Below are positions 7,997 to 62,979 of a stretch of DNA of 64,000 nt, piece after piece. Below the pieces are notes generated by a model. The model did not search any database. It had not been told where the DNA came from and saw nothing but the letters and a program-made list of their open reading frames with translations. Numbering within the stretch: the stretch's first letter is position 1; each line of letters begins with the position of its first letter. This stretch comes from an uncultured Ruminococcus sp. (GTDB taxonomy: Bacteria > Bacillota > Clostridia > Oscillospirales > CAG-382): NCBI GenBank assembly GCA_964549435.1, contig CAZJVB010000001.1, forward strand, positions 69,260-133,259, written 5' to 3'. The position numbers were made by a program, and so were the translations under genes.

Positions 7997-10702
7997 TTAT
8001 GAGGGAGTACCGAACTGCGCATAATAAGGTGTTTGGAACTTAACGGTAAATACAAATTCATAGTACGTTTCAAATTCACCTGCAACGGGGGTATCATCAT
8101 CCGGATCTTCCGGTTCAGTAGTGTCGGAAGTATCCTCTGACGTTTCCGTTTCTGTAGAAGTGCCGAACACCTTTAAAATATCCTTGGATGCAAATCCGAT
8201 TTCGTAGAGTGCGAGGTTTGCTCCGTTATATGCATCGGAATACAGCGGTAGGTAGACCTCCTCAAAGATCGTGGTTGCATCAGAAAGCTTTTCTTTAAGA
8301 TCATCCTCGCTCAGCCCCGGAAAATCTTGATTGATTTGCGTCTTCAGAGCTGAATCCAATTGAATGTCCGTATCATTTGCGTGATTGGCGATGAATTCTA
8401 ACATCTGCTGTGTGCGGGCGGTAAGCTGTTCCTCTGTTTCCGTCGGGAACAACTGCTTCAGCTGATCGTAGACGCCTTGTTCAAAGAGTTTCTGCATTGC
8501 AGCACTGTATTCTTCCGCAAACGCTTCAATAGCTTCCTTCAGCGCTTCTTCACATTCCTCGATGATTGCATTGCAGTATTCGGTGATCAAAGCGGAAAGT
8601 GCATTGTCAAGATTGGTACTGACAGTATCGGCAACTTCTACTTCTAATGAATAGTTGTACTCTTCAATAAATTGTGCTGAATCCGGAATCGCTTTCAGCG
8701 CAGAGAGGTAAGCAGAACTGTTGAGCACTTCCTGTGTTCTTTCTGTAACCTTATCGTCGATGAGAGAGACGTAAGTTGCTTCGATAGCGTCCTGCCACTG
8801 GCTGTCTTTTCTTACCAGTGTTCTGTAATTTTCCCAAAGCGTATCCGGATCGTTTAAAACTTGTTCCAAAAGCGCTTCAATTTCTTCCTCGGAGGCATCT
8901 GCATTTTCCGACTGCAGCTGTTCTTTGAGCTTCTTTTTGCGGGAACTGGTGCCGAAATCATCTACCAAATCCTGCTTGACGGTTTCTAAAGCCGCAGCGC
9001 GGAACTGTTCTTCATAGGCTTCGGTTACTTCTGCTTCCAAACCTGAGGTATAGGTGCGTTCAAGGCGCAGCACATACGTGGCAAGCAAATCATTATAAAT
9101 GCTTTCTTCTGCGGCTCTTTGCGCTTCTTCACTCGCTGTCTGATAATCGAAGTCAATTGCAGTACCGGTAATCAACTTCTGATAATGAGGCTGGATAATG
9201 TTCCAAAGGATGGATTCATAATCCGGCTCGGACAGCATCCATTCAACCTCCTGTCCGTCTTCATCCAGCGTGGTGCCGAAGACGAATTCCTGAGGCTCAA
9301 AGGTAAAGCCGATGGTTTTGGATTCGACTGCATCGATATTTTGATTTCTTGCGTCCGTCCATTTGTCTATAGAATCTCCGGCGTCTGCATCAGTGTATGC
9401 AATGAAGCAGTTTCCGGTATATGCATAATTCATGATATAATCGGAATTGATATGAACGACCTGATTGCTTTCCAAACGGTAATGCTCATTTTCCACGCCG
9501 TAAAGGAATGTATTTTGCAGATCCGCGTCCGTATATAATTCTGTCAGGATTTCCATGACGTCCGTCTGCCAGCTGGAGGGGCAAAGGGTGGAAACGCAGT
9601 AAATACTGTCAATACTATTTTCGCTGGTTGCAATCGGGACGGAATATTGGTTGTAAACGTAGTTATTTTCCGCAGCAAGCAACTCCATCTGCTCTTTAGT
9701 GCCGGAAAGAAATTTTACGGCAAACGCGACCCCTTCATCTGCGCCGGTTTGACCGGCATCGTTTACGAAATAGCCAAGTGCACTGTAGCGTGCCAGCATC
9801 GTGAGGTATTTATTGACCGTTTCGTCAGTATATGTGTTGCGGACGTAACCGCTTGCGTTGACATAAGCGGCAAAGCCATCCTCAAACATATAAGAGAAAG
9901 TAGAGGGGGTAACTGTGTTCGCAAGAGGCACGACACCGGGATTCTTCTCTTTTACAAGCGCGAGATATTCCGAGAGGTCTTCCAAGCTGTAGAGAGTTTC
10001 CTGTGCCACACCGCTGACTTCCAAAACATCTTTGTTGAACACAATATATGTATATTCTCCGATGATGGTGTTACAGGGGACGCCGTATGTCTTGTTGCCG
10101 ACTTTTGCCGCGTTGAAAAATGAGGAATGAACGTAGCTTTTAATCGCCTTGGCTTCATTGCTCAGGACGGTATCCAGTGCAGCAAGATCGCCGTTTTCTG
10201 CCAATTTCAGATAGGAGGCATAATCGGTGACAAGAAACAGATCCAAACGGGGGCATTCCAATTCGATTTCAATGCCGTTTTCCAAGTCATTCAGAATCGC
10301 CTCGCCAGACATCGCAGTATATCCTGCGGCAATGGCGCTATCCGTGAGCTTTGCAGTGTTGACAAGGGATTTTTTTTCTTCGGATTCGTTGTTTCCGCCT
10401 ATGTTGGTGCCGTTGATGTAATCGCTGACCTCTACCGTTTTGGCTTCGATCAATTCATGATATTCATCGGCTGAAACCATGACCAGTTTGACTATCGAAC
10501 CAATACGATAAAACAGCGTGCGGTTCAGCTCGTATTCTACCTCTGTGATCGCACGATCTGTTGTAGTGTCTCCGGTAATGCAATACAATGTATAAACCGG
10601 TGCCGCTGTGTCTACCAGTTCTGTCGCTCCCGAACAGGATGCCAGTACGAGCGGCAACGCCAGTACTAAAGCCAAAAACAAACAGACAACTTGCTTGCGC
10701 AT
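7997..10702 (-). CDS. Large lipoprotein: solute-binding-protein-like N-terminal half plus acidic alpha-helical C-terminal half
   Basis: Signal peptide with lipobox (LVLASC). Residues ~30-520 resemble large family-1 extracellular solute-binding proteins. The last ~380 aa are Glu/Asp/Ala/Leu-rich and end in a TSTETETSEDTSDTTEPEDPDDD tract. Confidence 0.7.
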   Translation of the reverse strand: MRKQVVCLFLALVLALPLVLASCSGATELVDTAAPVYTLYCITGDTTTDRAITEVEYELNRTLFYRIGSIVKLVMVSADEYHELIEAKTVEVSDYINGTNIGGNNESEEKKSLVNTAKLTDSAIAAGYTAMSGEAILNDLENGIEIELECPRLDLFLVTDYASYLKLAENGDLAALDTVLSNEAKAIKSYVHSSFFNAAKVGNKTYGVPCNTIIGEYTYIVFNKDVLEVSGVAQETLYSLEDLSEYLALVKEKNPGVVPLANTVTPSTFSYMFEDGFAAYVNASGYVRNTYTDETVNKYLTMLARYSALGYFVNDAGQTGADEGVAFAVKFLSGTKEQMELLAAENNYVYNQYSVPIATSENSIDSIYCVSTLCPSSWQTDVMEILTELYTDADLQNTFLYGVENEHYRLESNQVVHINSDYIMNYAYTGNCFIAYTDADAGDSIDKWTDARNQNIDAVESKTIGFTFEPQEFVFGTTLDEDGQEVEWMLSEPDYESILWNIIQPHYQKLITGTAIDFDYQTASEEAQRAAEESIYNDLLATYVLRLERTYTSGLEAEVTEAYEEQFRAAALETVKQDLVDDFGTSSRKKKLKEQLQSENADASEEEIEALLEQVLNDPDTLWENYRTLVRKDSQWQDAIEATYVSLIDDKVTERTQEVLNSSAYLSALKAIPDSAQFIEEYNYSLEVEVADTVSTNLDNALSALITEYCNAIIEECEEALKEAIEAFAEEYSAAMQKLFEQGVYDQLKQLFPTETEEQLTARTQQMLEFIANHANDTDIQLDSALKTQINQDFPGLSEDDLKEKLSDATTIFEEVYLPLYSDAYNGANLALYEIGFASKDILKVFGTSTETETSEDTSDTTEPEDPDDDTPVAGEFETYYEFVFTVKFQTPYYAQFGTPS

Positions 10703-13809: not shown

Positions 13810-15306
13810 TCAGTTGATGCTGCTTTTGTAGGCGTCAATGGTTTCCTGCATAGCGGTTTCTACTGCAATACGAATTCCATCCCATTTGGAAACCAAGTCA
13901 TTACTGTTTTGATACAAAAGATAACTATATACACCGATAAGCTGTCCCCCCCAGTCGAAAATGCCGCCGAGGTCGTAAATACGGCTGTTGCTGACGAGGT
14001 CCAGCATATAGGAATCGTCATCATCCGTGACAGATTGCAGCTTCAGCGTCGTCTCATAGAAAGCGGTCGTGACGCTGTTGGTTCCGAAGAGGGAATCACT
14101 GCTGCTGTAATAGCCGAGCAGCTCCATCAGATAGCAGGTCGCATTCAGGTTCTCTGTATTGGTAACCGGAATGCCCATGACGTCAGATTGGTAAGCATTA
14201 ACGCCGCAATAGTAGCTATCCTGGGCTTCGTTGTATTTCGGAATCGGCACGACACCGGGATTGACTTTATCGGTCAAGTCACTTTCCTTGATGTTGAGAA
14301 GCGTATCGATATAAGCGATACGGAACAGGGCATGGTTGGATACAAACATGTTCAACACATCGTCCCATTTGGATTCTGCAGTGAGCTGTTCGACATAAAG
14401 AGAGGTGGTACTGTCCTTAAGCATTTCGTAGACATAGCCAAATGCATTGAGTGAACGTTCCGTAGCGACATTGAGCACGATGTTGCCCTGTTCGTCTTTG
14501 GATGCCGTCACTGTTCCGGAGCCGTTGGTCAGCATAGTGGCACCGGTGTATCCGTCCGTGGTGATTCCGTAATAGGCGCCGGAAGTCATCCAGTTTCCGT
14601 CGTCATCGGGACGTGCGAATTCCTTTGCCATTGAGTACATCAATTCATAGGTCCATTCTCCATCCTTTACGATATCGTAAAGAGAACCGTAGCGTGACTC
14701 GAAATATGTGGCGTAAAGATCCTTGTTAAAGAAGACGGCGGATGTCATCAGATCATCCGTAAAGATCGCATCGCCGGCAACAAAGAAAATTTTATCGGAC
14801 AGTGTCAGGTAGGCATTTGCGTTCTGGTCCCACCAAGGCTGATTGAGCTCCAGCATATCGTTCAGCGAGTAGAACCAGTTTTCCACGACTGTCGGAACCA
14901 TGTAGTAAACCGCATCGCAGACGATGTCGTAATCGTCAATGTTTGTGGCGATGTAGTTCCCGATCTCGGTACCGGGTCGGGTGGTTTCCTCTACATTGAT
15001 TTTGATGCCGTATTTTTCTTCGATATAATCGTTGCGATTCTGAACGGCGGTGTTGATGACCGAACCCTCATATTCCTCGTTTGGGACAAACTGTTGGGAG
15101 TAGCGTTTGGAACGGGTGAGGATAGTGATTTCCGTATCACCAAAGTTTTTTTCTTCCAAAGGAAATTGATTATCTGCAACAGATGTGGTGTTTGACGTGC
15201 CTCCGGATGAGGAGGGCTGTTTTTCCGCGCTTTCTTGCCCGCATGCAGTTGCGAACGGAATCAATAGCAACAAAAGCGTCAGAAACAGAATCAGGCTCTT
15301 TTTCAT
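13810..15306 (-). CDS. Extracellular solute-binding lipoprotein (large family-1 ABC substrate-binding protein), orphan
   Basis: Start taken at the internal ATG (MKKSLILFLTLLLLLIPFATAC, lipobox). At ~498 aa its size and composition fit the large sugar-type SBPs. No permease gene is adjacent. Confidence 0.8.
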   Translation of the reverse strand: MKKSLILFLTLLLLLIPFATACGQESAEKQPSSSGGTSNTTSVADNQFPLEEKNFGDTEITILTRSKRYSQQFVPNEEYEGSVINTAVQNRNDYIEEKYGIKINVEETTRPGTEIGNYIATNIDDYDIVCDAVYYMVPTVVENWFYSLNDMLELNQPWWDQNANAYLTLSDKIFFVAGDAIFTDDLMTSAVFFNKDLYATYFESRYGSLYDIVKDGEWTYELMYSMAKEFARPDDDGNWMTSGAYYGITTDGYTGATMLTNGSGTVTASKDEQGNIVLNVATERSLNAFGYVYEMLKDSTTSLYVEQLTAESKWDDVLNMFVSNHALFRIAYIDTLLNIKESDLTDKVNPGVVPIPKYNEAQDSYYCGVNAYQSDVMGIPVTNTENLNATCYLMELLGYYSSSDSLFGTNSVTTAFYETTLKLQSVTDDDDSYMLDLVSNSRIYDLGGIFDWGGQLIGVYSYLLYQNSNDLVSKWDGIRIAVETAMQETIDAYKSSIN

Positions 15307-15352
15307 GGAGTCGCTTCCTTTCTTCAATAATATTATTAAATAATTATCTTTA

Positions 15353-15381
15353 ATTATATTCCGTTTTTGTTGTTTTGTCAA
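15353..15381 (-). promoter_or_regulatory. Consensus sigma-A promoter (TTGACA-17-TATAAT) for the SBP gene
   Basis: Perfect -35 and -10 hexamers with a 17-nt spacer, about 47 nt upstream of the ATG. Confidence 0.65.
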
Positions 15382-15399
15382 GGTACATTGCAAAAATAT

Positions 15400-51688: not shown

Positions 51689-52315
51689 ATGCGTATATTA
51701 TTTCAGGGTGACAGTGTAACAGATGCCGGTCGCTCATATGAGGATCCAACAGATCTCGGTCCCGGTTATCCGGCGGTGACGGCGCGTCTTCTTCGGGAGG
51801 CATTTCCCGATCGTTCACTGGAGTTTCTCAATCGTGGGATCGGTGGCAACCGAACCTCCCAGCTTGTTGAGCGCCTGCAGCGTGATTTTTTGGATTTGCA
51901 TCCGGATTTGGTGACACTCCTGATTGGTGTTAACGACAGTTGGCATCGCTGCCCGCCGACGTGTATTGAAACCACTGATGTGCAATTTGAGGAAAATTAC
52001 CGTATTGTCTTGAATGCACTGCGAGAGAAGCATATTCCGGTTGTAATGTTGGAGCCGTTTTCATTACCTTCAACGGTTGTTCCGGATTTTCGAGCAGATT
52101 TGACTTCAAAAATTGAAATTGTGCGCAAGCTTGCAAGGGAATATGCGTTGGCATATCTGCCGTTGGACGGACTGGCCGCTGCGGATGCCGTACGGTATGG
52201 CGTTACGCATCTGACAGATGACGGGGTGCATCCGAATGAAGAAGGACGCATTTGGCTCGGTACGCTGTTAGCGAACACATTGCAGCCGTTGCTTCGTGAA
52301 AAGTTTGCCTTATAA
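51689..52315 (+). CDS. SGNH/GDSL-family hydrolase
   Basis: 208 aa. FQGDSVTD block I and a C-terminal DGVHPN block V. Confidence 0.85.
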   Translation: MRILFQGDSVTDAGRSYEDPTDLGPGYPAVTARLLREAFPDRSLEFLNRGIGGNRTSQLVERLQRDFLDLHPDLVTLLIGVNDSWHRCPPTCIETTDVQFEENYRIVLNALREKHIPVVMLEPFSLPSTVVPDFRADLTSKIEIVRKLAREYALAYLPLDGLAAADAVRYGVTHLTDDGVHPNEEGRIWLGTLLANTLQPLLREKFAL

Positions 52316-52341: not shown

Positions 52342-52370
52342 CCTCCTGCGAAAGCTGCAGGAGGCTTTTT
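52342..52370 (+). terminator. Rho-independent terminator after the SGNH hydrolase gene (shared convergent hairpin)
   Basis: CCTCCTGC-GAAAGCT-GCAGGAGG followed by CTTTTTC. Confidence 0.7.
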
Positions 52371-53251
52371 CATGTCAGAAGAAAGGTGAGAATATATCCG
52401 CCCATATTATCTTCGGAAACCAATACGCTTTGATAGGAGGTGGGGACGATAAATGTATCGCCCTGCTGTCTGGAGATCAGATAGTTGCCGGACTGGTAAA
52501 AAATATTCGTCTCCAGCATTTGCATGTAGCTTTCCAATGTCAGATAGTTGTTCATAATGATTTCTGCGTGCGGACATCCTACATACCGCAAATGCCATGG
52601 CTCGTAGCCAAGTCCTGTTTCTGACTGACCGTAGGAAGGGTAACGGATGATGAAGCCGTATTCCTGACAATGATCATTGACGTACCTTCCTGCCTCGGTT
52701 TTCAGTAGCGCCATTCCTGCATAGGAGGGGAGATAAACATCTAATGCCAACCCCGCTTGATGCTCGCTTGCGCCAACCTCAGTGGCTGTATTTTCACTCT
52801 CTGCCAGTTCCAAGAGTTGATCTTCTGCCGTCCGATAGGCGGAATTGATGTATAGCTTTTGTCCGAATGTATTTTCTACGTTAGATGCAAGAGCCGCATA
52901 GGCATCTTGTATGCAGACATTCATCAGAACATCTGTGTCGCGGTAGGGAGCGATATCCGGTGAAAAGTTATCCGGAATGCGGTACTCTTTGTTAATCAGC
53001 AGCAGGGACTGGTTGCTTTGACACCGGGGATCGGAAAATAGCTCTTCTGCGGAAAGCTCCTGTGTTTCGATGGTTACGGCATCCAGTGAAAAGCTCGACA
53101 TGGCCGCTTTGATGTCCTGTTCGAGTCGGTAAACGATGTCGCTTCTGCCGTAGATAAATAACGCTGCAGCGAGAAACAGAACGACCATAACGGTTGCGAG
53201 AATGTAAATCCAAAAGTGCTTCTTTGTTCCTGTCGTTGTTTTATGTGCCAA
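52370..53251 (-). CDS. Membrane-anchored D-alanyl-D-alanine carboxypeptidase (VanY/M15B family)
   Basis: TTG start behind AGGAGAG, then an N-terminal TM helix. SAYRT, SEHQAGLALD and EPWHLRYVG zinc-peptidase motifs are present. Confidence 0.85.
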   Translation of the reverse strand: MAHKTTTGTKKHFWIYILATVMVVLFLAAALFIYGRSDIVYRLEQDIKAAMSSFSLDAVTIETQELSAEELFSDPRCQSNQSLLLINKEYRIPDNFSPDIAPYRDTDVLMNVCIQDAYAALASNVENTFGQKLYINSAYRTAEDQLLELAESENTATEVGASEHQAGLALDVYLPSYAGMALLKTEAGRYVNDHCQEYGFIIRYPSYGQSETGLGYEPWHLRYVGCPHAEIIMNNYLTLESYMQMLETNIFYQSGNYLISRQQGDTFIVPTSYQSVLVSEDNMGGYILTFLLT

Positions 53252-53359: not shown

Positions 53360-53399
53360 AAAAAGAAAAAGAAAAAAACACCCGAGCGTACGGGTGTTT
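53360..53399 (-). terminator. Rho-independent terminator ending the MBOAT/DHHW/FkbH/ACP operon
   Basis: ACACCCG-AGCGTA-CGGGTGT hairpin followed on the minus strand by a long U-rich tract (UUUUUUUCUUUUUCUUUUU). Confidence 0.7.
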
Positions 53400-53410
53400 T
53401 AGCAGGAGAC

Positions 53411-53653
53411 TTATTTACTTCGTGCGGCAATGATATCTGCCATCTCACCGACATTTTTCATCGAACTGACTTCCTTCATTGTGAACTTCACCTTGAACTC
53501 ACGCTCGACCGCGCCGATCAGCGTAATGTGTTCCAGACTGTCCCAGTCTTCGATATCCTTTGCGGTAGTTTTGCGTGAGACGGTGATGCTCTTGTCGTCA
53601 AATACCTTTCGAAAAATGCTGTTCAATCGGCTGAAAATTTCTGCTTCGCTCAT
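53411..53653 (-). CDS. Acyl/peptidyl carrier protein (DltC-like size)
   Basis: 80 aa from the internal ATG 53653 (RBS GAAGGAA). Phosphopantetheine-site context DIEDWDSLEHITLIGAVE. The ORF-track upstream extension overlaps the preceding gene and is rejected. Confidence 0.8.
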   Translation of the reverse strand: MSEAEIFSRLNSIFRKVFDDKSITVSRKTTAKDIEDWDSLEHITLIGAVEREFKVKFTMKEVSSMKNVGEMADIIAARSK

Positions 53654-53672
53654 AGTAATTTCCTTCTTTCCG

Positions 53673-55481
53673 TTATTGATCGATGAGGGTGTTTTCGTTT
53701 CCGTTGACACAAATGACATGATTTTGCGTTTGATAGGCGTCAATTTCCAATTCCCAAACCGTATTACCTTCGGAATCCTCATTCGTTTTACTAAATCCGA
53801 ATTTTGCGTATAGATCCTTGACCATGCCGTTCTTAGCGGTGGGGAAGTAATATCCGACGATGCGGCGGATACCGCACTTTTTTGCTTCTTTAACCAGCGT
53901 ATCAAGCATGGCAAATTCCATCTCTTTTTTCAGAACGCGGCAGCTCATTAGCCAAAGTTCCATGTGGAGAGCTTCGCCATCGATCCTGCCGATGACTACG
54001 GAAACTACGCCGTTGTCTCCAAACCGGTCCCATAGTTTTCCGTAAAGGCAAATATGATTACCGTCGGCTGCTGCGGCGCGAATTTCCTCCTCCGTGTAGC
54101 GGCGCGTGGTCAAATTAAACTGATTGGATTTATTGGTCAGCTGTGTGATACGGGCAAAATATACCTCCGGAAAAGGCAGAATATCTGCTTTCATCTCAAG
54201 GCTTTTCAGGTATTCTGTATAGTCAACGAAGGAAAGCTCTAATTCTTCCCGTTCTGCGTTGGCGCGGTACATTTCATTGCGTTTGCTGTCATCCTCAGAG
54301 ATGACCGTCGCCTCAAAATACCCGTTGCGGTCCAGCGTGCGGATATAGGTATCCGGAGAGATCATCTCCGGAACTGCCATTCCCGGAATACTTTCAGCGA
54401 CCAACGCGCGTTCTGTTGGATTATCGTCTACAAAAACGAAGGAATCCACACCGAGATGCATTTGCGTTGCTGTCAGCAGGAGGTTACGATCTTTGTTTTC
54501 CCAGTCGGCTTTGATAACGATAAAATCCTCCGGACGGAGAACGCCGTCCGGGTGGTTAAGCCCGTCTAAGGCATTCTGCAAATCGTTTTTGGATGCAACG
54601 GTCAGCATTACGCCGAGCTGTTGGTGTGCCTTCAGGTACTGCTGAAATGCCAGAAAGCATTCTGCAGTCGCTGTCTCGCTGCCGATTTCGATACCGTCTG
54701 CGCCGTCGTCCCCGACCACGCCTCCCCAAAGCGTGTTGTCCAGATCCAGCGCGAGTACTTTTTTGTTCTTTCCGAACAGTGATTTAATGATTCGAACTGT
54801 GTTGAACGCCCAATATGGAATGGCATCCAAAGCGCAGGCGTATTTATAGAGATACCAAACCGAATCATCCAGCCAACGATCCAGACCGTAGCAGGCGGAA
54901 ATATATTGGAGATCATTGAGGTAGAAGCTTTCTTCTTTAGCGGCATAAGCGGCAAATGCAAGGTTTAGCCGGTTCACAAAGAACACGCTTCCGTGCATTT
55001 CCCAGCAGTCACGGTTTCCGTATAGGCGATGGCCGGGAAATTCAAAGGTATTTTGGATAATCGGGCAGTGATACGCATCCTTCAGACGTTTCCACATGGC
55101 TTCGTATTGCCCGTAGGCGTCTGTAAATTTGTGTTCGGCTTCCGCTTCCGAATCTCCAGGCTGCGGCAAAAGATTTTGCAGATTGCGGAAGGAGGTGTGG
55201 ATATAGATAATGTCGGGACGAAATTCGTCCAATTCCGGATTTCCGAACATCGCATCCTGCCAGAACTGCGCATATTCGGATTGATAGAAGACCGGAGAGA
55301 TGCCGTCTTTCAGCAAAAACAGCTCCATCATTTTGCAGAAGTCGTCGGTAGTTGAGCCCCCTAAAACGGCGATACGTTTCGTAGTGCGGCTGCTTCCGTC
55401 TGCCAGCAGTTCACGGCGGATAGCTTTCTTGTTTTCTAAAAGTTCCTTGCCGTCAAAAGGATACGTGAGTGAAATCATCAA
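53673..55481 (-). CDS. FkbH-like HAD-IIIC phosphatase-family protein with C-terminal GNAT-like domain
   Basis: 602 aa. HAD motif I is VLALDLDNTLWGGVVGDDG. The C-terminal ~150 aa resemble an acetyltransferase fold (MELWLMSCRVLKKEMEFAMLD...). ATG 55478 is an alternative start. Confidence 0.8.
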   Translation of the reverse strand: MMISLTYPFDGKELLENKKAIRRELLADGSSRTTKRIAVLGGSTTDDFCKMMELFLLKDGISPVFYQSEYAQFWQDAMFGNPELDEFRPDIIYIHTSFRNLQNLLPQPGDSEAEAEHKFTDAYGQYEAMWKRLKDAYHCPIIQNTFEFPGHRLYGNRDCWEMHGSVFFVNRLNLAFAAYAAKEESFYLNDLQYISACYGLDRWLDDSVWYLYKYACALDAIPYWAFNTVRIIKSLFGKNKKVLALDLDNTLWGGVVGDDGADGIEIGSETATAECFLAFQQYLKAHQQLGVMLTVASKNDLQNALDGLNHPDGVLRPEDFIVIKADWENKDRNLLLTATQMHLGVDSFVFVDDNPTERALVAESIPGMAVPEMISPDTYIRTLDRNGYFEATVISEDDSKRNEMYRANAEREELELSFVDYTEYLKSLEMKADILPFPEVYFARITQLTNKSNQFNLTTRRYTEEEIRAAAADGNHICLYGKLWDRFGDNGVVSVVIGRIDGEALHMELWLMSCRVLKKEMEFAMLDTLVKEAKKCGIRRIVGYYFPTAKNGMVKDLYAKFGFSKTNEDSEGNTVWELEIDAYQTQNHVICVNGNENTLIDQ

Positions 55482-55522
55482 AATATCTTACCTCTCTCAT
55501 CGGTTTTCAGCGACTCTGCTTC

Positions 55523-56695
55523 TCATTGTGTCATCAGCGTTGTGATGTAGTTGCGTTTTGTTCCCGCTACGGAAAAGGCGGAAAGCGCAAAAGTAACGTC
55601 TGTAATCTGGTTTTCCTCGATAAAGTCCAGAATGTTGCAGGAGAACTCGCGGAGATCTACGACATAGACTTCCTCGAATCCCGCAATTAGGAACGGCGCC
55701 AGTGCGTTGCCGAAGCTGTCTTTGATGATCAACATCTTTCTTCCGTTCTGCACACCGGTCTCCACCCGGACTGCATAGCTGTCGCCGTATATGAATTTGA
55801 TGTAGGACTGAGAGGAAGAAAACATTGAGCCGGAAAAGGAAAAGCGGTAGCTTTGCGAATAATAGTGCGCTGTGTAGGTTTGCTTCGGTTCATACCAGAC
55901 AAAGGTTTCCGGATAACTGCCTAACTCCGAAACATCATAGGTTTTATAGACGGAACCTAAAAAACCGTCAAAGCTGTATTGATCAAACTGGGAGAGCGGC
56001 GCGAAATCGGCGCCAGCCTGCCTGCAAAGCGCTTCCGCCGCATAATATGCTCCTAAAGCAAACCAATGATGATCGGTTCGGGCGTAAATTTCTTCTTGGG
56101 TGTGCGGGGATAGCGCTGAAAGCAGATCGACAAACTGTACATCGACCAATGCGTCCCGCAATCCGGTAAAGCAATCCGCCGTTTTGACAATAGAGGACTC
56201 ATAGCCCTCAGGCGCATAAAAGGCGCAGGCGAGCGGGATTGGCATGGCATATACATTAACGGCATTACCGACTTTTTCTTTAAAGCTGTTCATCAGCTTG
56301 GCGGTTTCTGCGCCGCTGCTTGCCGTGCCGCCGAACAACTCCATGCCGCGATTGCCGCAGACCAAAAATCCGTTGACCATATGCGGCGTTGGGTTTAGAA
56401 CCTCGGGCTGACTTTGCGTAGTCGATACCTGCTCAGAGTTATCGGGCGGGAGGGAAGGCACTGCGGAATTCGAGGAGATTTCCTCCGGGGAGGTCGCTTC
56501 CGATGCTTCTGAAACCGGCTCGGACAAAGATTCCTCCAAAAGTGAGATATCGGAGATGGTAGGGAGCGCGGATGGTTCTGTCGGGACAGAGTGTGATATT
56601 GTACTGCTTTCTTGTTTTGCAATTTCCTGCTCAGCACAGGCAAAGAGCAATGCCGCAGTGAACAAACACAGAAAAATAATCAGTATTCTTTTCAT
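55523..56695 (-). CDS. DHHW-family lipoprotein (AlgJ/AlgX/PatB-like extracytoplasmic acyltransferase fold)
   Basis: Lipobox LLFAC, a Ser/Pro/Glu-rich linker, and the DHHW motif (ARTDHHWFALGAYYAAEAL). ATGA overlap with the upstream paralogue. Confidence 0.8.
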   Translation of the reverse strand: MKRILIIFLCLFTAALLFACAEQEIAKQESSTISHSVPTEPSALPTISDISLLEESLSEPVSEASEATSPEEISSNSAVPSLPPDNSEQVSTTQSQPEVLNPTPHMVNGFLVCGNRGMELFGGTASSGAETAKLMNSFKEKVGNAVNVYAMPIPLACAFYAPEGYESSIVKTADCFTGLRDALVDVQFVDLLSALSPHTQEEIYARTDHHWFALGAYYAAEALCRQAGADFAPLSQFDQYSFDGFLGSVYKTYDVSELGSYPETFVWYEPKQTYTAHYYSQSYRFSFSGSMFSSSQSYIKFIYGDSYAVRVETGVQNGRKMLIIKDSFGNALAPFLIAGFEEVYVVDLREFSCNILDFIEENQITDVTFALSAFSVAGTKRNYITTLMTQ

Positions 56696-58083
56696 CAGTC
56701 AAAAAGTCCTTGGAGGTATCCTATATAATTACTGCCTACGGCAGATAGTGCGCATTCTGCAAAGAGAACGTCTGTAATTCCCTGTTCCGGAATAAAGGTT
56801 TTCAGATTACATTCAAAATACCGCGCGTCAACGATATAGATTTCCTGAAAAGAGTAAAGCAGATAGGGAGCGAGTGCATTGCCGTAGCTGTCCTTGACGA
56901 TCAGTAACTTGCGTCCGTTGGTGCAGGCATTGGATTCCAGCTTGACTGCATAGGAATCACCGCCAATGAAGGTCAAATACCAACTGGATTTGGCGTCATC
57001 ACTGATATTCAAAAACAAACTGTCTTTTTCAGTAGGATTCTGAAAGCTGTGATTATAGAATGTTGCTCGATATGTGGCGGCTGGTATATAGGTGACAAAG
57101 TCTTCCGGGTTATTCAAGAGGGTGGTATTATAGCCGGTATACTTATACATTGTACCGAGATAACCACTTCTCACTTTCTTTTCATAGGTGGAAAGATCTT
57201 GGAATGGCAATCCGAGATCCGATGCTAATTTTTGTGCTGCATAATATGCGCCGAGTGCTGTCCAATGATGGTCGGTACGGAAATAGATATCTTCTTCGGC
57301 ATGCGCTTTGAGTGTATCATATACGTTAATGGACGTAACCTTGGAGGAAAGGCGCTCCTCGATGGCCTGCAAATCATTTAGCGTTCGATCAGCATAATCC
57401 CCGTAAGTGGCTGATGCTTGGATATAGTATGCGCAGGATTTTGGAATGACCATGGAGTAGACATTGACGTTGGGGAAAGCTTCCGCGAATTGATTCAGCG
57501 TCTGTGCAAAGGTAGGGATACGTTTTAGCGTTCGATCACCGGAATAGATCTCCATTGCGCGTGTTCCGAGAATCAAAATATCATTGCAAAGTTCTTCGTC
57601 AATCTGTCCACTCTGTTCTTCGCTGGAGGTTTCGCTGGAGCTCGTATTTGTGCTGTTGTCGGGTACACTGCTGTCGGTCCCGCTGTTGTCATTGGATAGA
57701 GTTCCCTGACTCTGTGTAGACGACGCGTCGGAGGTGTCGTTATGATTGGAAGTATTTCCGATCACTATTTCCGTTTGACCGTCTTCTGAGCGGATAATCG
57801 TTTCCTTTCCGAACCAATTGCTGATGCGTGCATATAGATCCTTGAAGCGGTCGCGGTTATGAACCGTATCGGTAAAGTAGTCCGCTAACTGTGAAGTATA
57901 GCTTCCGTCCAACAGGGAACTGAAGGAGAACTTCGGCTTTTCGGTCAGTGTATCATAGTCGGAGACTGTCTGCCTCGGCAGAAAAACACAGAATACGAAC
58001 ATAAACAAAAATGTTCCCATGATCAGGAATAGACTGATCAGCTTGGCAAGACGAAGCAGGAATGACGATGTCTTCTTATTCAT
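56695..58083 (-). CDS. DHHW-family protein, N-terminally membrane-anchored
   Basis: An uncleaved-looking TM anchor, a Ser/Thr/Asp/Asn-rich linker, and the DHHW motif (FRTDHHWTALGAYYAAQKL). Confidence 0.8.
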   Translation of the reverse strand: MNKKTSSFLLRLAKLISLFLIMGTFLFMFVFCVFLPRQTVSDYDTLTEKPKFSFSSLLDGSYTSQLADYFTDTVHNRDRFKDLYARISNWFGKETIIRSEDGQTEIVIGNTSNHNDTSDASSTQSQGTLSNDNSGTDSSVPDNSTNTSSSETSSEEQSGQIDEELCNDILILGTRAMEIYSGDRTLKRIPTFAQTLNQFAEAFPNVNVYSMVIPKSCAYYIQASATYGDYADRTLNDLQAIEERLSSKVTSINVYDTLKAHAEEDIYFRTDHHWTALGAYYAAQKLASDLGLPFQDLSTYEKKVRSGYLGTMYKYTGYNTTLLNNPEDFVTYIPAATYRATFYNHSFQNPTEKDSLFLNISDDAKSSWYLTFIGGDSYAVKLESNACTNGRKLLIVKDSYGNALAPYLLYSFQEIYIVDARYFECNLKTFIPEQGITDVLFAECALSAVGSNYIGYLQGLFD

Positions 58084-58107
58084 GGATGATTACCCCCTTT
58101 TTATCAT

Positions 58108-59571
58108 TCAAAAACGGAAATACAGAAACGGATTGTTTTTGGACGAAACCAGCATGATTGTGCAGATGATCAGCATGCCGATACAGCAGATGGAGGATAC
58201 CACCTGTACGCTTGCCTGTACCGGGGCGCTTCTGGTACGCAGGAATTCCTTGATCTTCGGAAGGAGTGGGAAGCAGATCAGCAGCGACAGAAGGAAAATC
58301 CATGCATATTTCATAAAGTAAACGTTGGTGCGCAGTGTTTGGCTGTACGGTCCGGACGTGAATTCGTCTGCACGGAAGAAACCGTTGCCGGAAAATCCGA
58401 ATAGATTTTTGAAAAAGGTGCCCATTTGAGAAAAGAAGCTGCCGAGATTTGAACAATCGTCATAATAGAAAATCCCGAATCCGATGATAATAACGATCTT
58501 ATTGTAGATGTGCATGATAACATCCGGCACTCTTTTCAGACGCTTTTTGCCCAGCTTTTGCTCAATAAAGATGAACAAGCCGAAGTATAGTCCCCACGCA
58601 ATAAAGTTCCAGCTGGCACCGTGCCAGAGACCGGTTGTAAACCAGACCAAAAACAGGGAGAGCCATTGTCTGCGTTTTCCGAAAATCGGAAGATACAGCA
58701 GGTAATCCCGGAAGAAACTCCCGAGAGAAATATGCCAGCGCTGCCAGAATTCCTGAATGGAGCGGCACATGAACGGATAACGGAAGTTTTCGTCAAAATG
58801 AAAGCCGAAAATACGTCCCATGCCGATCGCCATATCGGAATATCCGGAGAAGTCAAAATATACCTGCATGGAATAGGAAATCACGCCTATCCATGTTGCT
58901 GCAACAGAGCTTGTCCCGATCGTCGTAGTCAAATAGTTTTCCGCAATGATCGAAAGGGTATTCGCAAGAACAACTTTTTTGGTTAGACCGATGATCAGAC
59001 GCGAAAAGCCTTCGGTGAGATCAGTCAGGGTAGTTCTGCGATCTTCAATTTCCGATGCAATGGTTGCGTAACGGACGATTGGACCGGCGACCAACTGCGG
59101 AAAGAGAGAGACATATAGGAGAAGCTTGGCGTATTCCTTCTGCACCGGTACTTTTTCCCAATATACATCGATCACATAGGACATGATTTGGAACGTGTAG
59201 AAACTGATGCCCAGCGGCAGAACGACATGGGTGAGGGGAATACCGGTACCGAACCAAGAGTTGATATTTTCAATTACAAAATCCGTGTATTTGAAAATGG
59301 CAAGCATGCCGATATTGTAAATCAGGGAAATAACCAGAGAGAACTTGCAAAGATGGTTACCGCGATTGGCGTCGATGGAGCGTGCCAACAGGAAGTTGAT
59401 CGCTGCACTGAGCAGCAGAAGCACCAATTTGATCGGTTCTCCCCATGCATAAAAGAGCAGGGAAAAGACCAGCAGCACTGCGTTGCGATAGCGAATCTGC
59501 TTGGTAAACAGATAGCAGCCAACACAGAGCGGTAGAAAAACGAACAGAAACAGCAGAAGCGCAAAGTTCAT
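58108..59571 (-). CDS. MBOAT-family membrane O-acyltransferase (DltB/AlgI/PatA-like)
   Basis: 487 aa, polytopic. Catalytic-histidine context EFWQRWHISLGSFFRDYL and a TTGLWHGASWNF motif. Confidence 0.92.
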   Translation of the reverse strand: MNFALLLFLFVFLPLCVGCYLFTKQIRYRNAVLLVFSLLFYAWGEPIKLVLLLLSAAINFLLARSIDANRGNHLCKFSLVISLIYNIGMLAIFKYTDFVIENINSWFGTGIPLTHVVLPLGISFYTFQIMSYVIDVYWEKVPVQKEYAKLLLYVSLFPQLVAGPIVRYATIASEIEDRRTTLTDLTEGFSRLIIGLTKKVVLANTLSIIAENYLTTTIGTSSVAATWIGVISYSMQVYFDFSGYSDMAIGMGRIFGFHFDENFRYPFMCRSIQEFWQRWHISLGSFFRDYLLYLPIFGKRRQWLSLFLVWFTTGLWHGASWNFIAWGLYFGLFIFIEQKLGKKRLKRVPDVIMHIYNKIVIIIGFGIFYYDDCSNLGSFFSQMGTFFKNLFGFSGNGFFRADEFTSGPYSQTLRTNVYFMKYAWIFLLSLLICFPLLPKIKEFLRTRSAPVQASVQVVSSICCIGMLIICTIMLVSSKNNPFLYFRF

Positions 59572-59663
59572 GACAGGAGACCGTCCCTTTCTTGACGCGG
59601 CAGCAAACCGGCAAACATGTTCGGCAGATGAGCTCTCACCGCAACCCCAAAATATACATTCAA

Positions 59664-59692
59664 ATTATATACCAAATGTTGCCGGAAGTCAA
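59664..59692 (-). promoter_or_regulatory. Near-consensus sigma-A promoter (TTGACT-17-TATAAT) for the MBOAT operon
   Basis: Read on the minus strand, about 93 nt upstream of the MBOAT ATG. Confidence 0.6.
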
Positions 59693-59799: not shown

Positions 59800-62700
59800 T
59801 CAGCTGTCTGCGGATTTTTCAATCAAAAGATTCAGCTCCGCTCCGAAGAATAGAATGAACATGCAGATATATAACCAGAGCATGAAAATAATGATGGCGG
59901 CGAGACTGCCGTATATATTCGCATAATTGGAAAAATTATTTACATAAAAGGAAAAGATGAAAGAGAACAGAACCCAGCCGACAGCAGCGATGACTGCTCC
60001 CGGAAATTGGGCTGCAAAGCTGGTTTTCCGATCCGGCAGCACCTTGAACAGCAACGCGAAGAAAAAGGTCAGAAGCAGCAGACCGATCACGAAGCGCAGC
60101 GAGGACAATGCATTCATCAGATTAAAAAGCTCCGGGAACCGTGTGACGAAAAGCCCCGCAATGGAGGTGCCGAACACCATCAGCAACAGTGTGGCAACCA
60201 GAATCAGAATAAATGCCAGCGTGTAGAATACGGAAAGCGCGCGTACCTTCAGCATGCTTCGGCTTTCTTTCACCTCAAAGACGGAATTTAATCCGTCAAT
60301 GATATAGTAGACGCCCTTGGAGGCGGACCATACGACGGCGATCGCAGAAAAGGAGGTCATGATGGAGGAGCCGCTTTCGAAGATATTGCGAACAATGTCA
60401 TCGAACAACCTGCCGACGAGAGAGGGGAACAGACGGGAAAAGTCTCCGATGAACTCTTCCGCTGAAATAGAGAGGAAGCTGGTCAGAGAAAAGACCAAGA
60501 TCAGCAGCGGGACGATCGCAAACAGCATAAAGAATGCTACCTGCGCGGAGCAGGCACCTACACGGTGTGCACTGATTTTACGCGAGAAGTAACGGATAAC
60601 GGTTATCAATCGAATCACATACTTTTCAAGATGCAGCCGCGCATATCCGCTCTGGATCAGCACGGTCAGAAGAAATACCGCGAGGGCTACTGCCAGAGAA
60701 GCGATGCCGATCATGCAGGAACTGAATCTGGTCAGATTCATTTCAAACAGATCTCGGAAGAAAGCAGCGCAGAGCAGATAGACCGCGCCAACCGTAAATA
60801 TCATTGCACTTTTGATACGGTCTAAAGGCTGTGAAACCCATAGCAGACCGCAGATTGCGCAGATCGCGGTACAGTAGGCGCAAACTGTTGAGATGTCTTC
60901 TTGAGGGATCGGGTAAAAGTTGCCGAGCAGAGTGGCGAATACTACGCCCGCTGTGATGGCATTTCCGGCAGGAAGCGCTTTTCCTAATGCGTTGGCAAGA
61001 AAATTTCCCTGAATTCGCTTCTGCGACGGCTGCAGGGAAAGCAGCAGGGAGGGAATGGCGACAGTCAGACTGCTGATCAACGTCAGTTGAATGGGAATAA
61101 ACGGATATGCGCACGGCAGAAAAATAAAAAGAAGGCCGAGCAGAATGGAGTAAACGGTTTTCGTCAGGAACAGCGAAGCGCTTTTTTCCAAATTGTTGAC
61201 TGCACTCCTTCCCTCCGACACCACAGATGGAAGTCCGGTGTAGTCCGAATCCAGCATAATCATATCCGCGACATTGCGCGCCGCGTCCGTACCGTCGTTG
61301 ATTGCGACGGAGCAATCCGCTTCCCGCAGAGCGAGCACGTCGTTTACACCGTCACCGGTCATGGCGACGGTATGTCCGTTTTCCTTCATGGCGCGGATCA
61401 GCAGCTGCTTTTGGACGGGAGTTGCGCGGCCGAATACGGTATAGGCTTCTGCTAATTCACGGTAATCCGCGTTTTCCGGAAACAGAGAGAGATCAAAATA
61501 TTTGTCATAGTCCGGAATGCCGGCTCCCCGTGCGATGCGCGCGACCGTGATCGGGTTGTCGCCGGAGATCAGTTTGATCTGCACGCCCTGACGCAGAAAA
61601 AAGGCGACGGTGTCGGCGGCTCCGGGGCGGATGGTATCGGTCAGCATGACCAGACCGATTGCCTGTCGGTTCTGCGGCAGCGAATCCGTCATTTCACATT
61701 GCTCGGCGAAAGAGACGCAAAGGACGCGGCATTCGGTAGCAAGCGTATTGGCAGCCTGCAAGCGCTCGCTTTCCTTCGATGTCAGCACAAATTCGGGGGC
61801 ACCTAATATATATGCGTCGCCGGTTTCGGAATAGACCGTGCAATACTTCTTTTTGCTGGAAAAGGGGACGGTTTTGACAGCTTTGCGTGTTTTCCGTCCG
61901 CGGCAGTAGCGTTCAATTGCCGCGATGGTTTCGTTACCGGAGGTATTTTCCGCGATCATGGCAAGCGCATCCAGCAGGGGTTCCTGCTCTGTCTGGAACG
62001 GGAGAATGCTGGCGACAGTCAGCTTGCCGTCGGTCAGTGTCCCGGTCTTGTCCAAGCAGAGCGTATCCACGCGCGCCAGCGTTTCCACACTGTAAAGCTC
62101 CTTGACCAGAATCCGTTTCTTGGAAAGACGGAAAACGGCAAGCGCCATAATACCGGATACCAAAAGAATTAACCCTTCCGGAATCATACCGACCATTGCC
62201 GCGACCGTATTGCGCACGGCGGCAGCGATGCTAAAAGAGCGTTGTCTTTGCAAAAAGAAAAACAGGACGGCATATGGAAAAATCAGCAGAGTTACCGTAT
62301 CGATAATACGCCGCAACGCCAAAATGATCTCAGAGGACTTTTTCCGGTATTGCTTTGCGCCTGCAGAGATCTCCTGCAAAAGGCTGTCCGAGCCTACCTG
62401 AATCACTGCGGCGACACATTCCCCGGTAACGAGAAAAGAGCCGGAAAGCAGTGTGTCTCCGTTTGTTTTGTACACTGGCTCACTTTCTCCGGTCAGAAGA
62501 GCCTCGCTCACTTCGCAGTCACCGTAAATCAACGTGCAGCCTGCAGGAATCTGTTCTCCCGGACGAAACAGAACAATATCACCGTATACGAGCTCTTCGG
62601 ATGGGATGCTGCTTTCCTTGCCCTCGCGGCGTACTGTGACCATGGAAGCGGTCATCACCGAGAGCTTGTCCGTTGCCAGTTTGGCACGGATTTCCTGAAA

Positions 62701-62979
62701 GATACCGATGACAACGTTGCAGAAAACAACGCCGAGAAAAAGAGCGTTCTTGAAGGATTGAACCAGAAACAGTGCTGCTGCCATCAGCAGATTGATTAGA
62801 TTGAACAGCGTCATCAGATGTTCACGGACGATACGCGGGATACTTTTGGTTTTCAGGATCGCGGAGCGGTTGTCAAGACCTGCCTCTGTGCGAAGACGGA
62901 CTTCTTCGGCATTCAGGCCGGTCAGAATATCCGGCATTCGGTACTCCGTTTTATTCGGTTGCTTCCTGCGTTTTAGCAT
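59800..62979 (-). CDS. In-frame fusion: cation-transporting P-type (HAD) ATPase (N-terminal ~786 aa) + YihY/BrkB-family membrane domain (C-terminal ~273 aa)
   Basis: A single 1059-codon ORF. P-type motifs TGESEPV, CLDKTGTLT and MTGDGVNDVLAL. From about nt 60621 downwards the sequence is YihY/BrkB-like (AHRVGACSAQVAFFMLFAIVPLLIL ... SLAAIIIFMLWLYICMFILFFGAELN). Confidence 0.85.
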   Translation of the reverse strand: MLKRRKQPNKTEYRMPDILTGLNAEEVRLRTEAGLDNRSAILKTKSIPRIVREHLMTLFNLINLLMAAALFLVQSFKNALFLGVVFCNVVIGIFQEIRAKLATDKLSVMTASMVTVRREGKESSIPSEELVYGDIVLFRPGEQIPAGCTLIYGDCEVSEALLTGESEPVYKTNGDTLLSGSFLVTGECVAAVIQVGSDSLLQEISAGAKQYRKKSSEIILALRRIIDTVTLLIFPYAVLFFFLQRQRSFSIAAAVRNTVAAMVGMIPEGLILLVSGIMALAVFRLSKKRILVKELYSVETLARVDTLCLDKTGTLTDGKLTVASILPFQTEQEPLLDALAMIAENTSGNETIAAIERYCRGRKTRKAVKTVPFSSKKKYCTVYSETGDAYILGAPEFVLTSKESERLQAANTLATECRVLCVSFAEQCEMTDSLPQNRQAIGLVMLTDTIRPGAADTVAFFLRQGVQIKLISGDNPITVARIARGAGIPDYDKYFDLSLFPENADYRELAEAYTVFGRATPVQKQLLIRAMKENGHTVAMTGDGVNDVLALREADCSVAINDGTDAARNVADMIMLDSDYTGLPSVVSEGRSAVNNLEKSASLFLTKTVYSILLGLLFIFLPCAYPFIPIQLTLISSLTVAIPSLLLSLQPSQKRIQGNFLANALGKALPAGNAITAGVVFATLLGNFYPIPQEDISTVCAYCTAICAICGLLWVSQPLDRIKSAMIFTVGAVYLLCAAFFRDLFEMNLTRFSSCMIGIASLAVALAVFLLTVLIQSGYARLHLEKYVIRLITVIRYFSRKISAHRVGACSAQVAFFMLFAIVPLLILVFSLTSFLSISAEEFIGDFSRLFPSLVGRLFDDIVRNIFESGSSIMTSFSAIAVVWSASKGVYYIIDGLNSVFEVKESRSMLKVRALSVFYTLAFILILVATLLLMVFGTSIAGLFVTRFPELFNLMNALSSLRFVIGLLLLTFFFALLFKVLPDRKTSFAAQFPGAVIAAVGWVLFSFIFSFYVNNFSNYANIYGSLAAIIIFMLWLYICMFILFFGAELNLLIEKSADS

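Follow-up and report, generated by a model that had tools for sequence, protein, structure and literature searches.

A five-gene operon joining an FkbH-like enzyme and an acyl carrier protein to an MBOAT and two DHHW proteins: a candidate system for carrier-protein-dependent acylation of the cell envelope in an uncultured Ruminococcus

The DNA analysed here, called the window throughout, is a stretch of 64,000 nucleotides (nt) from an uncultured Ruminococcus sp. Between window positions 53411 and 59692 its minus strand carries an operon of five genes, which encode an O-acyltransferase of the MBOAT family, two DHHW-family proteins (DHHW-1 and DHHW-2), a putative FkbH-family loading enzyme and a stand-alone acyl carrier protein (ACP). 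Among named relatives, uncultured Oscillospiraceae come closest, with 81% identity. In the direction of transcription the features are:

59664..59692, minus strand: sigma-70-type promoter TTGACT-17-TATAAT, 11/12 consensus match, about 92 nt 5' of the MBOAT start codon
58108..59571, minus strand: MBOAT O-acyltransferase, 487 aa (Pfam MBOAT E 2.8e-24)
56695..58083, minus strand: DHHW-1, DHHW-family SGNH-like transferase, 462 aa (Pfam DHHW E 1.9e-55, and ALGX)
55523..56695, minus strand: DHHW-2, DHHW-family SGNH-like transferase, 390 aa (Pfam DHHW E 2.9e-38, and ALGX)
53673..55481, minus strand: putative FkbH-family loader, 602 aa (FkbH_N, TIGR01686, HAD-IIIC)
53411..53653, minus strand: stand-alone ACP, 80 aa (PP-binding, 21.0 bits)
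53360..53400, minus strand: intrinsic terminator, a 10-bp G+C-rich stem (AAAACACCCG...CGGGTGTTTT) at 53400-53375 followed by a T-run

All five open reading frames (ORFs) lie where the original prediction, made from the letters and ORF translations alone, had placed them, and its picture of tightly packed co-directional genes between a near-consensus promoter and a strong terminator holds for the coordinates, the promoter match and the stem with its T-run. One promoter and one terminator bound the operon, which makes it a single transcription unit from 59692 to 53360. The MBOAT and DHHW-1 genes are 24 nt apart and the two DHHW genes overlap by 1 nt, whereas about 41 nt separate DHHW-2 from the FkbH-like gene and 19 nt separate the latter from the ACP gene. 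In one detail the prediction has to be corrected: the stop and start of the two DHHW genes had been said to overlap in ATGA, but the junction reads GAC TGA TGA AAA, so that stop TGA and start ATG share a single base (TGATG). Catalytic motifs are intact in all five proteins, and profile hidden Markov models together with structure models bear out each of the five domain assignments. A regulatory RNA in the 92-nt leader was considered and rejected, since no Rfam family matched there or anywhere in the region from 52 to 61 kb.

The MBOAT protein carries the two conserved histidines expected from the first reading of the sequence, H280 in WHISL and H317 in LWHG. Its best solved sequence relative is DltB (6BUG, E 2e-21), in which these motifs align with WHMSL and FWHG, and DltB is also the best fold match (6BUG_C, TMt 0.66) of an AlphaFold2 model with pTM 0.81. 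Against the DltB equivalog model TIGR04091 the protein scores 153.3 bits, below the cutoff of 375. Beyond the DltB-like core the model shows two extra C-terminal helices (419-476), after which the chain ends in FLYFRF (residues 482-487, with Tyr484), a hexapeptide of the FxYxxF type that the original prediction did not contain. In the Dlt system the tyrosine of the DltX hexapeptide takes D-alanine from DltC via DltB and passes it to DltD. PatA carries this FxYxxF motif as part of the MBOAT itself, on two added helices, and the motif is auto-acetylated from acetyl-CoA (PMC12148441). With its conserved histidines and a C-terminal FxYxxF on extra helices the window MBOAT resembles the PatA type, and by analogy to the work on DltX and PatA we infer that FLYFRF acts as an acyl-tyrosine shuttle. 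A small ORF for a separate DltX-like microprotein was sought in the 92-nt leader, and none is present there. The fused motif is close to universal among linked MBOATs of the related loci described below: an FxYxxF-type end ([F]-x-Y-x-x-[F/I]) was found in 67/68 full-length MBOATs of genome loci and in 42/44 of metagenome loci, with FLYFRF, FIYQGF, FIYFQF and FIYARI among the variants.

DHHW-1 and DHHW-2 are paralogues (39% identical) that score 189 and 132 bits, respectively, against the Pfam DHHW cutoff of 25; both match DHHW and ALGX, not DltD (PF04914). Using the motif blocks defined for the family (PMC9487903), DHHW-1 has the full set, with DHHW at 271, KDS at 397 (Ser399) and DARY at 419. 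DHHW-2 has DHHW at 208, KDS at 325 (Ser327) and DLRE at 347; the latter departs from DxRY, and the Block II arginine is kept in both proteins. By hydropathy DHHW-1 has an N-terminal transmembrane anchor (residues 15-33), and DHHW-2 is a predicted lipoprotein with a signal peptide ending in LFAC and Cys20 as the lipidated position. Each protein further contains a linker of 65-85 residues made up to 64-71% of S/T/D/P/E/N, rich in Ser/Thr/Asp/Asn in DHHW-1 and in Ser/Glu/Pro in DHHW-2. Pfam, hydropathy and composition thus agree with the earlier description of two paralogues with anchor, lipobox and low-complexity linkers, and with their DHHW, KDS and DxR motifs and export signals both proteins qualify as extracytoplasmic SGNH-like partners of the MBOAT. 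DHHW-1 matches the uncharacterised structure 4NZK (Eubacterium siraeum EUBSIR_00411) at E 1.2e-65 and Bacillus cereus PatB1 (5V8D) at E 1.8e-12.

The fourth gene starts at TTG 55481 (602 aa) or at the next codon, ATG 55478 (601 aa), the start used in public gene calls. Its product combines an N-terminal FkbH_N alpha/beta domain, a HAD-IIIC phosphatase domain (58.5 bits, cutoff 35.75) and a C-terminal domain of GNAT fold, and the TIGR01686 FkbH-domain model is matched at 271.6 bits (cutoff 146.65). The main motifs are DLDNTLW at 246, DDNP at 352 and SCR at 513. D246, D248, T250, K330, D352 and D353 as well as C514 (in WLMSCRVLKK) are invariant in 36 homologues, and the DxDxT aspartates of the HAD domain and the SCR cysteine are present in 80/80 homologues; the HAD catalytic residues, whose loss would have spoken against an FkbH-type function, are therefore intact. 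Residues 19-396 match BF1531 of Bacteroides fragilis (3SLR, a structural genomics entry) at E 8e-46. The AlphaFold2 model (pLDDT 85) likewise retrieves 3SLR for residues ~1-396 in Foldseek, and its C-terminal domain retrieves RimI, CBU0801 and other GNAT-fold proteins (E ~5e-6, TMt 0.65-0.73), in line with the GNAT-like C-terminus suggested earlier. In the model Cys514 sits at a strand-helix junction of this domain. OzmB and FkbH convert 1,3-bisphosphoglycerate via phosphoglyceryl-S-enzyme and glyceryl-S-enzyme to glyceryl-ACP (PMC9057759, PMC7489565), and Cys514 would be the residue acylated in the acyl-S-enzyme intermediate. The modelled GNAT fold would fit binding of a pantetheine arm. FkbH-type proteins form a large family with 14,231 cluster representatives (50% identity) at E <= 1e-3 and 5,317 at E <= 1e-30, counts that take in the FkbH proteins of polyketide synthase (PKS) pathways.

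The last gene, which starts 19 nt 3' of the FkbH-like gene, encodes the carrier protein. Its score against the PP-binding model is narrowly above the cutoff of 20.8 bits, it matches NCBIfam ACP models with E down to 6.6e-10 (below the model cutoffs), and its best solved match (E 2.8e-19) is the nuclear magnetic resonance structure 2LML, whose deposited name is "putative acyl carrier protein". These matches support the proposed 80-aa carrier protein with a DSL site, the phosphopantetheine site being Ser39 in WDSLEH; WDSLxH is the commonest form of the site among 73 ACP ORFs near FkbH-like genes. The NCBIfam scan gave no DltC-named model at E <= 0.01, although the presence of such a model in the library is unconfirmed. 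As anticipated in the original prediction, DltA is missing from the window: no AMP-binding (DltA-like) domain occurs in window ORFs of >=450 aa, and no AMP-binding gene was found to recur beside the cassette in related loci.

The gene linkage is conserved far beyond the window. A scan of a genome collection with the FkbH-like profile gave at least 581 relatives, of which the best 80 loci (51-63% identity) were analysed with 10-kb flanks, neighbouring genes being detected by profile searches on six-frame ORFs. Among 78 loci with sufficient downstream sequence an ACP gene is adjacent to the FkbH-like gene in 64 and lies within 4 kb in 73. In fully flanked loci (n = 40) a same-strand MBOAT gene occurs within 10 kb of the FkbH-like gene in 35, an MBOAT or DHHW gene in 37 and an ACP in 38; as a rough estimate, which was not computed, an MBOAT gene would fall by chance into a 20-kb span of a ~3-Mb genome in a few percent of cases. 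In 18 loci the ACP ORF overlaps the MBOAT ORF or is at most ~80 nt away from it. A reciprocal look-up gave the same result: when the MBOAT was searched alone and four homologues (58-61% identity) were chosen outside the FkbH match list, all four lie in loci with the order BrkB - MBOAT - DHHW - DHHW - FkbH_N - 78/79-aa ORF, as in the window. A metagenome scan, for which FkbH-like representatives sharing 33-37% identity with the window protein served as seeds, yielded contigs from human gut, rumen, soil and peat, and where at least 4 kb were available on both sides, 27/35 loci contain an MBOAT or DHHW gene. Altogether the FkbH-like/ACP pair stands beside MBOAT and SGNH-type genes in Oscillospiraceae, Lachnospiraceae, Ruminococcus, Christensenellaceae and others, and does so in several gene orders. 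One outcome that the original prediction had named as a refutation, the absence of the five-gene synteny from related genomes, is thereby contradicted in both look-up directions. Because synteny is kept across families and in both directions, chance adjacency of the MBOAT is effectively excluded.

Clustering of the neighbouring genes defined three recurrent architectures. Type A, represented by the window, reads MBOAT-DHHW(-DHHW)-FkbH-ACP. Type B reads FkbH-ACP-[MaoC-like dehydratase]-[short-chain dehydrogenase/reductase (SDR)]-MBOAT-[transmembrane-anchored protein of ~350 aa]. The anchored partner of type B (cluster c5) has a conserved GSS near the N-terminus and DxxH near the C-terminus, the canonical SGNH block order also seen in DltD. 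Pfam matches are weak (GDSL_2 in 4/15 members; DltD once, at E 0.033), a profile search of the cluster against the PDB gave no match, and we tentatively regard the protein as SGNH-like, mainly from its GSS and DxxH motifs. Type C reads MBOAT-GT2-DUF6020-x-GDSL-FkbH-ACP-x-VOC-GtrA-DUF6044-radical SAM. The pair is surrounded here by genes typical of extracytoplasmic glycosylation, and the neighbours (GT2, GtrA, large polytopic DUF proteins) point to glycopolymers of wall or lipoteichoic type in type-C genomes. A cassette of type B/C is present in the cultured Eisenbergiella tayi DSM 26961 (L048).

Many of these cassettes also contain additional enzymes. Between the FkbH-like gene and the ACP/MBOAT genes are inserted a split transketolase (N and C subunits), an aldo-keto reductase, a MaoC-like dehydratase and an SDR (loci L023, L030, L031, L052, L074 and L075, ~11.8-14 kb per locus; also L005, L018, L044 and L079); in some type-B loci the split transketolase and aldo-keto reductase stand between FkbH and ACP, and other related cassettes have a VOC/glyoxalase or radical-SAM/SPASM gene. 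Since the tailoring genes differ among cassettes, the exported ACP-bound acyl unit would vary by species. The MaoC dehydratase and SDR of type B could, for example, turn glyceryl-ACP via pyruvoyl-ACP into lactyl-ACP, the same glyceryl-to-lactyl logic as in the loading module of bryostatin. Of this widespread modular cassette the window contains the minimal version; in other genomes it is extended by enzymes that would alter the unit on the ACP prior to its export.

From these data we propose that the five genes form one operon for the carrier-protein-dependent acylation of an extracytoplasmic envelope polymer. In the cytoplasm the FkbH-family enzyme would use a phosphorylated three-carbon acyl donor, for which 1,3-bisphosphoglycerate is the most likely candidate; an acyl-S-Cys514 intermediate would form, the HAD domain would remove the phosphate, and the glyceryl unit would be passed to the phosphopantetheine on Ser39 of the ACP. 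This loading step is suggested by family membership and by the precedent of OzmB and FkbH. Glyceryl-S-ACP would then dock on the MBOAT from the cytoplasmic side, in the way that DltC docks on DltB, a step to which the conserved gene linkage points. His317 (possibly His280) would catalyse transfer of the acyl group to the protein's own Tyr484 in FLYFRF at the outer face, one of the membrane-tethered DHHW proteins would take it over on Ser399 or Ser327, and this protein would esterify a hydroxyl group of the acceptor, for which a wall polysaccharide, a teichoic-acid-like polymer or peptidoglycan are candidates. Each of the two DHHW paralogues may have a site or a polymer of its own. Glyceryl-S-ACP as the exported donor is the simplest prediction because the window cassette is without a tailoring gene.

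At the sequence level the operon structure, the complete catalytic sets and the fused FxYxxF motif are evident, as are the export signals of the DHHW proteins and the conservation of the linkage. In our judgement the proposal as a whole is moderately probable. Its parts differ in strength: that the ACP feeds the MBOAT is likely, from the gene linkage and by analogy with DltC and DltB, whereas the identification of the acyl unit as glyceryl, which is drawn from sequence homology, is about an even bet. Extending the view from the window to its relatives, we suggest with some reserve, and at slightly less than even confidence, that a second carrier-protein-dependent system of envelope acylation, parallel to D-alanylation, may exist in Firmicutes of the gut and the environment and in some other phyla. 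In such a system FkbH would draw a C3 unit from glycolysis, optional enzymes would tailor it, and MBOAT and SGNH/DHHW proteins would install glyceroyl, lactyl and other hydroxy-acyl esters as a diversifiable "acyl code" of the cell surface.

Several points weigh against the proposed pathway. To our knowledge there is no chemical report of glyceroyl esters on wall polymers of Clostridia. The actinomycete FkbH and OzmB proteins (OzmB has 366 aa) are distant from the window enzyme and have no N-terminal domain, and the substrate assignment rests on homology. Some lineages depart from the full gene set. In an E. siraeum-like lineage the order is Pth-DHHW-DHHW-FkbH-ACP with no MBOAT within 10 kb (L017 7097-12011, L021 7126-12011, L158-L162 and L165). 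The first DHHW protein of these loci is ~60% identical to 4NZK (EUBSIR_00411), which probably belongs to this DHHW-DHHW-FkbH-ACP system. A high-GC gut lineage (L096-L103, L113, L127, L134 and L141-L147; e.g. L098 7902-12188) has an FkbH gene, a 370-aa transmembrane-anchored SGNH-like protein and an MBOAT ending in FLYARY, with no ACP detected in the cluster. In ~10-20% of the FkbH/ACP loci, moreover, an MBOAT gene is missing and the context looks cytoplasmic. Finally, the characterised fused-shuttle MBOATs (PatA) use acetyl-CoA (PMC12148441), and acetyl-CoA is a possible donor for the window MBOAT as well.

The last two points also speak for a scenario of two separate steps, in which the MBOAT and DHHW proteins perform acetyl-CoA-dependent O-acetylation of the PatA1/PatB1 or CcsH/CcsI type and a glyceroyl or related unit made by the FkbH/ACP pair is added by a cytoplasmic transferase to the precursor of the same glycopolymer; the genes would travel together because both activities decorate one polymer. 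All fused-FxYxxF MBOATs characterised to date do use acetyl-CoA, and MBOAT/DHHW pairs without an ACP are known in B. cereus PatA1/PatB1 and clostridial CcsH/CcsI. The FkbH/ACP module is also found with cytoplasmic-looking partners and no MBOAT. Three such loci from soil and peat (L092, L111 and L149, ~3.6-13 kb) combine an FkbH-like gene with GT2 genes, an AsnB-like amidotransferase gene, a ~380-aa gene and a VOC gene; L149 has an upstream 83-aa ACP-like ORF with an NWDS motif, for which no equivalent ORF was called in L111, and the arrangement suggests that here the same donor module serves exopolysaccharide synthesis in the cytoplasm. In L121 the module is accompanied by MaoC, SDR and an unannotated 288-aa protein. 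A further parallel comes from the flagellin-glycan locus of Campylobacter jejuni, which has an FkbH-domain gene in a strain that makes nonulosonic acids of N-glyceroyl type in the cytoplasm. Against two separate steps stands the fact that the window and the other type-A cassettes are without a candidate cytoplasmic transferase, their sole acyltransferases being the MBOAT and the DHHW proteins. Also, the linkage to the MBOAT survives three gene orders and different SGNH partners, and the ACP gene often abuts the MBOAT gene. We therefore regard the two-step scenario as unlikely for the window. The original prediction had itself raised a cytoplasmic route for the FkbH/ACP pair: such contexts do occur, in a minority of lineages and possibly with cj1302 of C. 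jejuni, but most loci are MBOAT-linked. FkbH plus ACP is probably a general acyl-donor module, used mostly for export by MBOAT and SGNH proteins and in a minority of cases probably by cytoplasmic transferases.

A different acyl unit would leave the route from ACP via MBOAT and DHHW protein to the polymer unchanged. According to this alternative the operon exports a small acyl group other than glyceryl, which in many relatives is converted before export, e.g. to lactyl. The clade of the FkbH-like protein is distant from the characterised FkbH and OzmB and has an extra N-terminal domain. In relatives, moreover, the genes inserted between FkbH and MBOAT (MaoC and SDR, split transketolase and aldo-keto reductase, VOC/glyoxalase or radical SAM) point to an exported unit that varies. 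The window cassette, however, is without a tailoring enzyme, so that the unit loaded by FkbH would leave the cell unaltered, and a TIGR01686 score well above the cutoff together with intact HAD residues and cysteine argues for a phosphorylated donor such as 1,3-bisphosphoglycerate. For the window we give a non-glyceryl unit a rather small probability, a shade lower than that of two separate steps. Chance adjacency is effectively excluded, and so is a role of the FkbH/ACP pair in secondary metabolism of the tetronate or methoxymalonyl type without any relation to the envelope genes: characterised FkbH/ACP pairs do all belong to polyketide, tetronate or nonribosomal peptide synthetase (NRPS) pathways, but no ketosynthase, FabH-like, acyltransferase (AT), dehydrogenase or methyltransferase genes of such pathways occur in the window or recur beside the cassette, and MBOAT/SGNH synteny is kept across families and in both look-up directions.

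The proposed carrier-protein-dependent pathway has its closest parallel in the Dlt system. Shared features are the (here proposed) loading of a carrier protein in the cytoplasm, an MBOAT conduit for which DltB is the best match in sequence and fold, an FxYxxF acyl-tyrosine shuttle motif and a membrane-tethered outer transferase of SGNH type. In contrast to Dlt, no adenylating DltA is encoded in the window, and an FkbH-family HAD/GNAT enzyme is the putative loader. For the carrier protein the matches are to generic ACP models and to 2LML, and the score of the MBOAT stays far under the cutoff of the DltB equivalog model. The shuttle is fused to the MBOAT, whereas that of Dlt resides on the DltX microprotein; the outer transferases are DHHW proteins instead of DltD; and the predicted acyl group is a hydroxy acid instead of D-alanine. 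With the O-acetylation systems PatA/PatB, PatA1/PatB1, AlgI/AlgJ/AlgX, WssH/WssI and CcsH/CcsI the operon has in common an MBOAT whose two additional C-terminal helices lead to a terminal FxYxxF, and a circularly permuted SGNH partner of the DHHW/AlgX type, PatB1 being a homologue of DHHW-1, and a clostridial MBOAT/DHHW pair was already known from a cellulose locus (CcsH/CcsI). MBOAT/SGNH pathways other than Dlt were described in 2025 as operating without a carrier protein (PMC12148441). Those systems use acetyl-CoA with neither carrier nor loader, whereas the window operon encodes an ACP and an FkbH-type loader whose linkage is conserved.

A comparison with the FkbH/OzmB pathways (methoxymalonyl-ACP, tetronate and aeruginosin-type; in aeruginosin-type NRPS pathways FkbH domains also load glycerate) shows the same HAD-IIIC domain, a C-terminal domain with a conserved cysteine and a dedicated neighbouring ACP. 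The partners in the window are envelope acyltransferases, with no PKS, NRPS or FabH-like recipient and no dehydrogenase, methyltransferase or tetronate genes. A resemblance to the window is also seen in the flagellin-glycan locus of C. jejuni, where an FkbH-domain gene, cj1302, stands in a surface-glycan context and the strain produces N-(2,3-di-O-methylglyceroyl) pseudaminic acid. It differs in that this N-acyl group is made on the CMP-sugar in the cytoplasm, with cj1302 as a possible participant. We know of no MBOAT or SGNH protein in the C. jejuni glyceroyl pathway. Through this case, acyl groups derived from glycerate have a precedent at the bacterial surface.

The original prediction had suggested that the locus mixes the architectures of Dlt and of O-acetylation, and our results support and sharpen this view through the FxYxxF motif fused to the MBOAT. 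All parts come from known families, and the overall logic of carrier protein, MBOAT, tyrosine shuttle, SGNH transferase and polymer is that of Dlt; the system is not categorically new. What is new is the combination: a non-adenylating loader of FkbH type that taps glycolysis, a generic-type ACP, a fused shuttle, DHHW transferases, a wide distribution and a modular diversification. At the genomic level the cassette breaks the dichotomy between Dlt and acyl-CoA systems, since it unites a PatA-type fused shuttle and DHHW proteins with a dedicated carrier and loader. Like the original prediction, which knew of no characterised system of this composition, our full-text literature searches found no description of an FkbH/ACP/MBOAT envelope system, but most subscription papers lie outside their coverage and an earlier report is possible.

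If the proposal is true, it adds a third MBOAT-SGNH design to the carrier-protein Dlt and acyl-CoA systems and implies that the MBOAT conduit accepts acyl-ACP donors beyond D-alanine. Hydroxy-acyl esters of glyceroyl or lactyl type would then be expected on the walls of gut Oscillospiraceae, Lachnospiraceae, Ruminococcus and Christensenellaceae, where they could affect phage adsorption, recognition by host lectins and antibodies, control of autolysins and resistance to antimicrobial peptides. Two orphan structures also gain a context: 4NZK, whose closest relatives among the fetched loci lie in DHHW-DHHW-FkbH-ACP operons, and 3SLR (BF1531), which covers the N-terminal and HAD part of the FkbH-like protein.

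Outside the operon the window is ordinary chromosome, with genes for GatA/B, a MurC-like ligase, GAPDH, MetRS, Mfd, ClpB, a V-type ATPase and BipA. Directly upstream of the operon lies a gene (59800-62979, minus strand) for a 1059-aa P-type (E1-E2) ATPase fused to a C-terminal BrkB/YihY domain (804-1055, E 8.5e-60), and in the closest relatives (L001, L082-L086) a stand-alone BrkB gene of ~272 aa is found directly upstream of the MBOAT gene. BrkB/YihY was considered as a sixth component and rejected as a core part, since the wider set of loci does not show this adjacency. On the other side, at 52370-53251 (minus strand), is a homologue of VanY-family D,D-/L,D-carboxypeptidases (VanY E 1.6e-19, below all named vanY/vanXY/LdcB cutoffs) with an N-terminal transmembrane segment and its own promoter, TTGACA-17-TATATT at 53347-53319. 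The downstream VanY-type gene of the original prediction is thus real, but the cell-wall-themed neighbourhood drawn from it is weak, and the gene was rejected as part of the cassette because of its separate promoter and because a VanY gene close to the cassette was seen again only in L077 and in the organism of the window itself. Convergent with it, a gene at 51689-52315 (plus strand) encodes a 208-aa GDSL/SGNH hydrolase that starts with MRILFQGDSVTD, has no N-terminal hydrophobic stretch by eye and is presumably cytoplasmic; it could be an esterase in envelope acyl turnover or be unrelated. Two large predicted lipoproteins are encoded on the minus strand at 7997-10702 (901 aa, LASCSG) and 13810-15393 (527-aa ORF, internal signal peptide ending in ATACGQ). 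Both gave no Pfam match at E <= 1e-5, and they may be divergent exoproteins of the solute-binding type.

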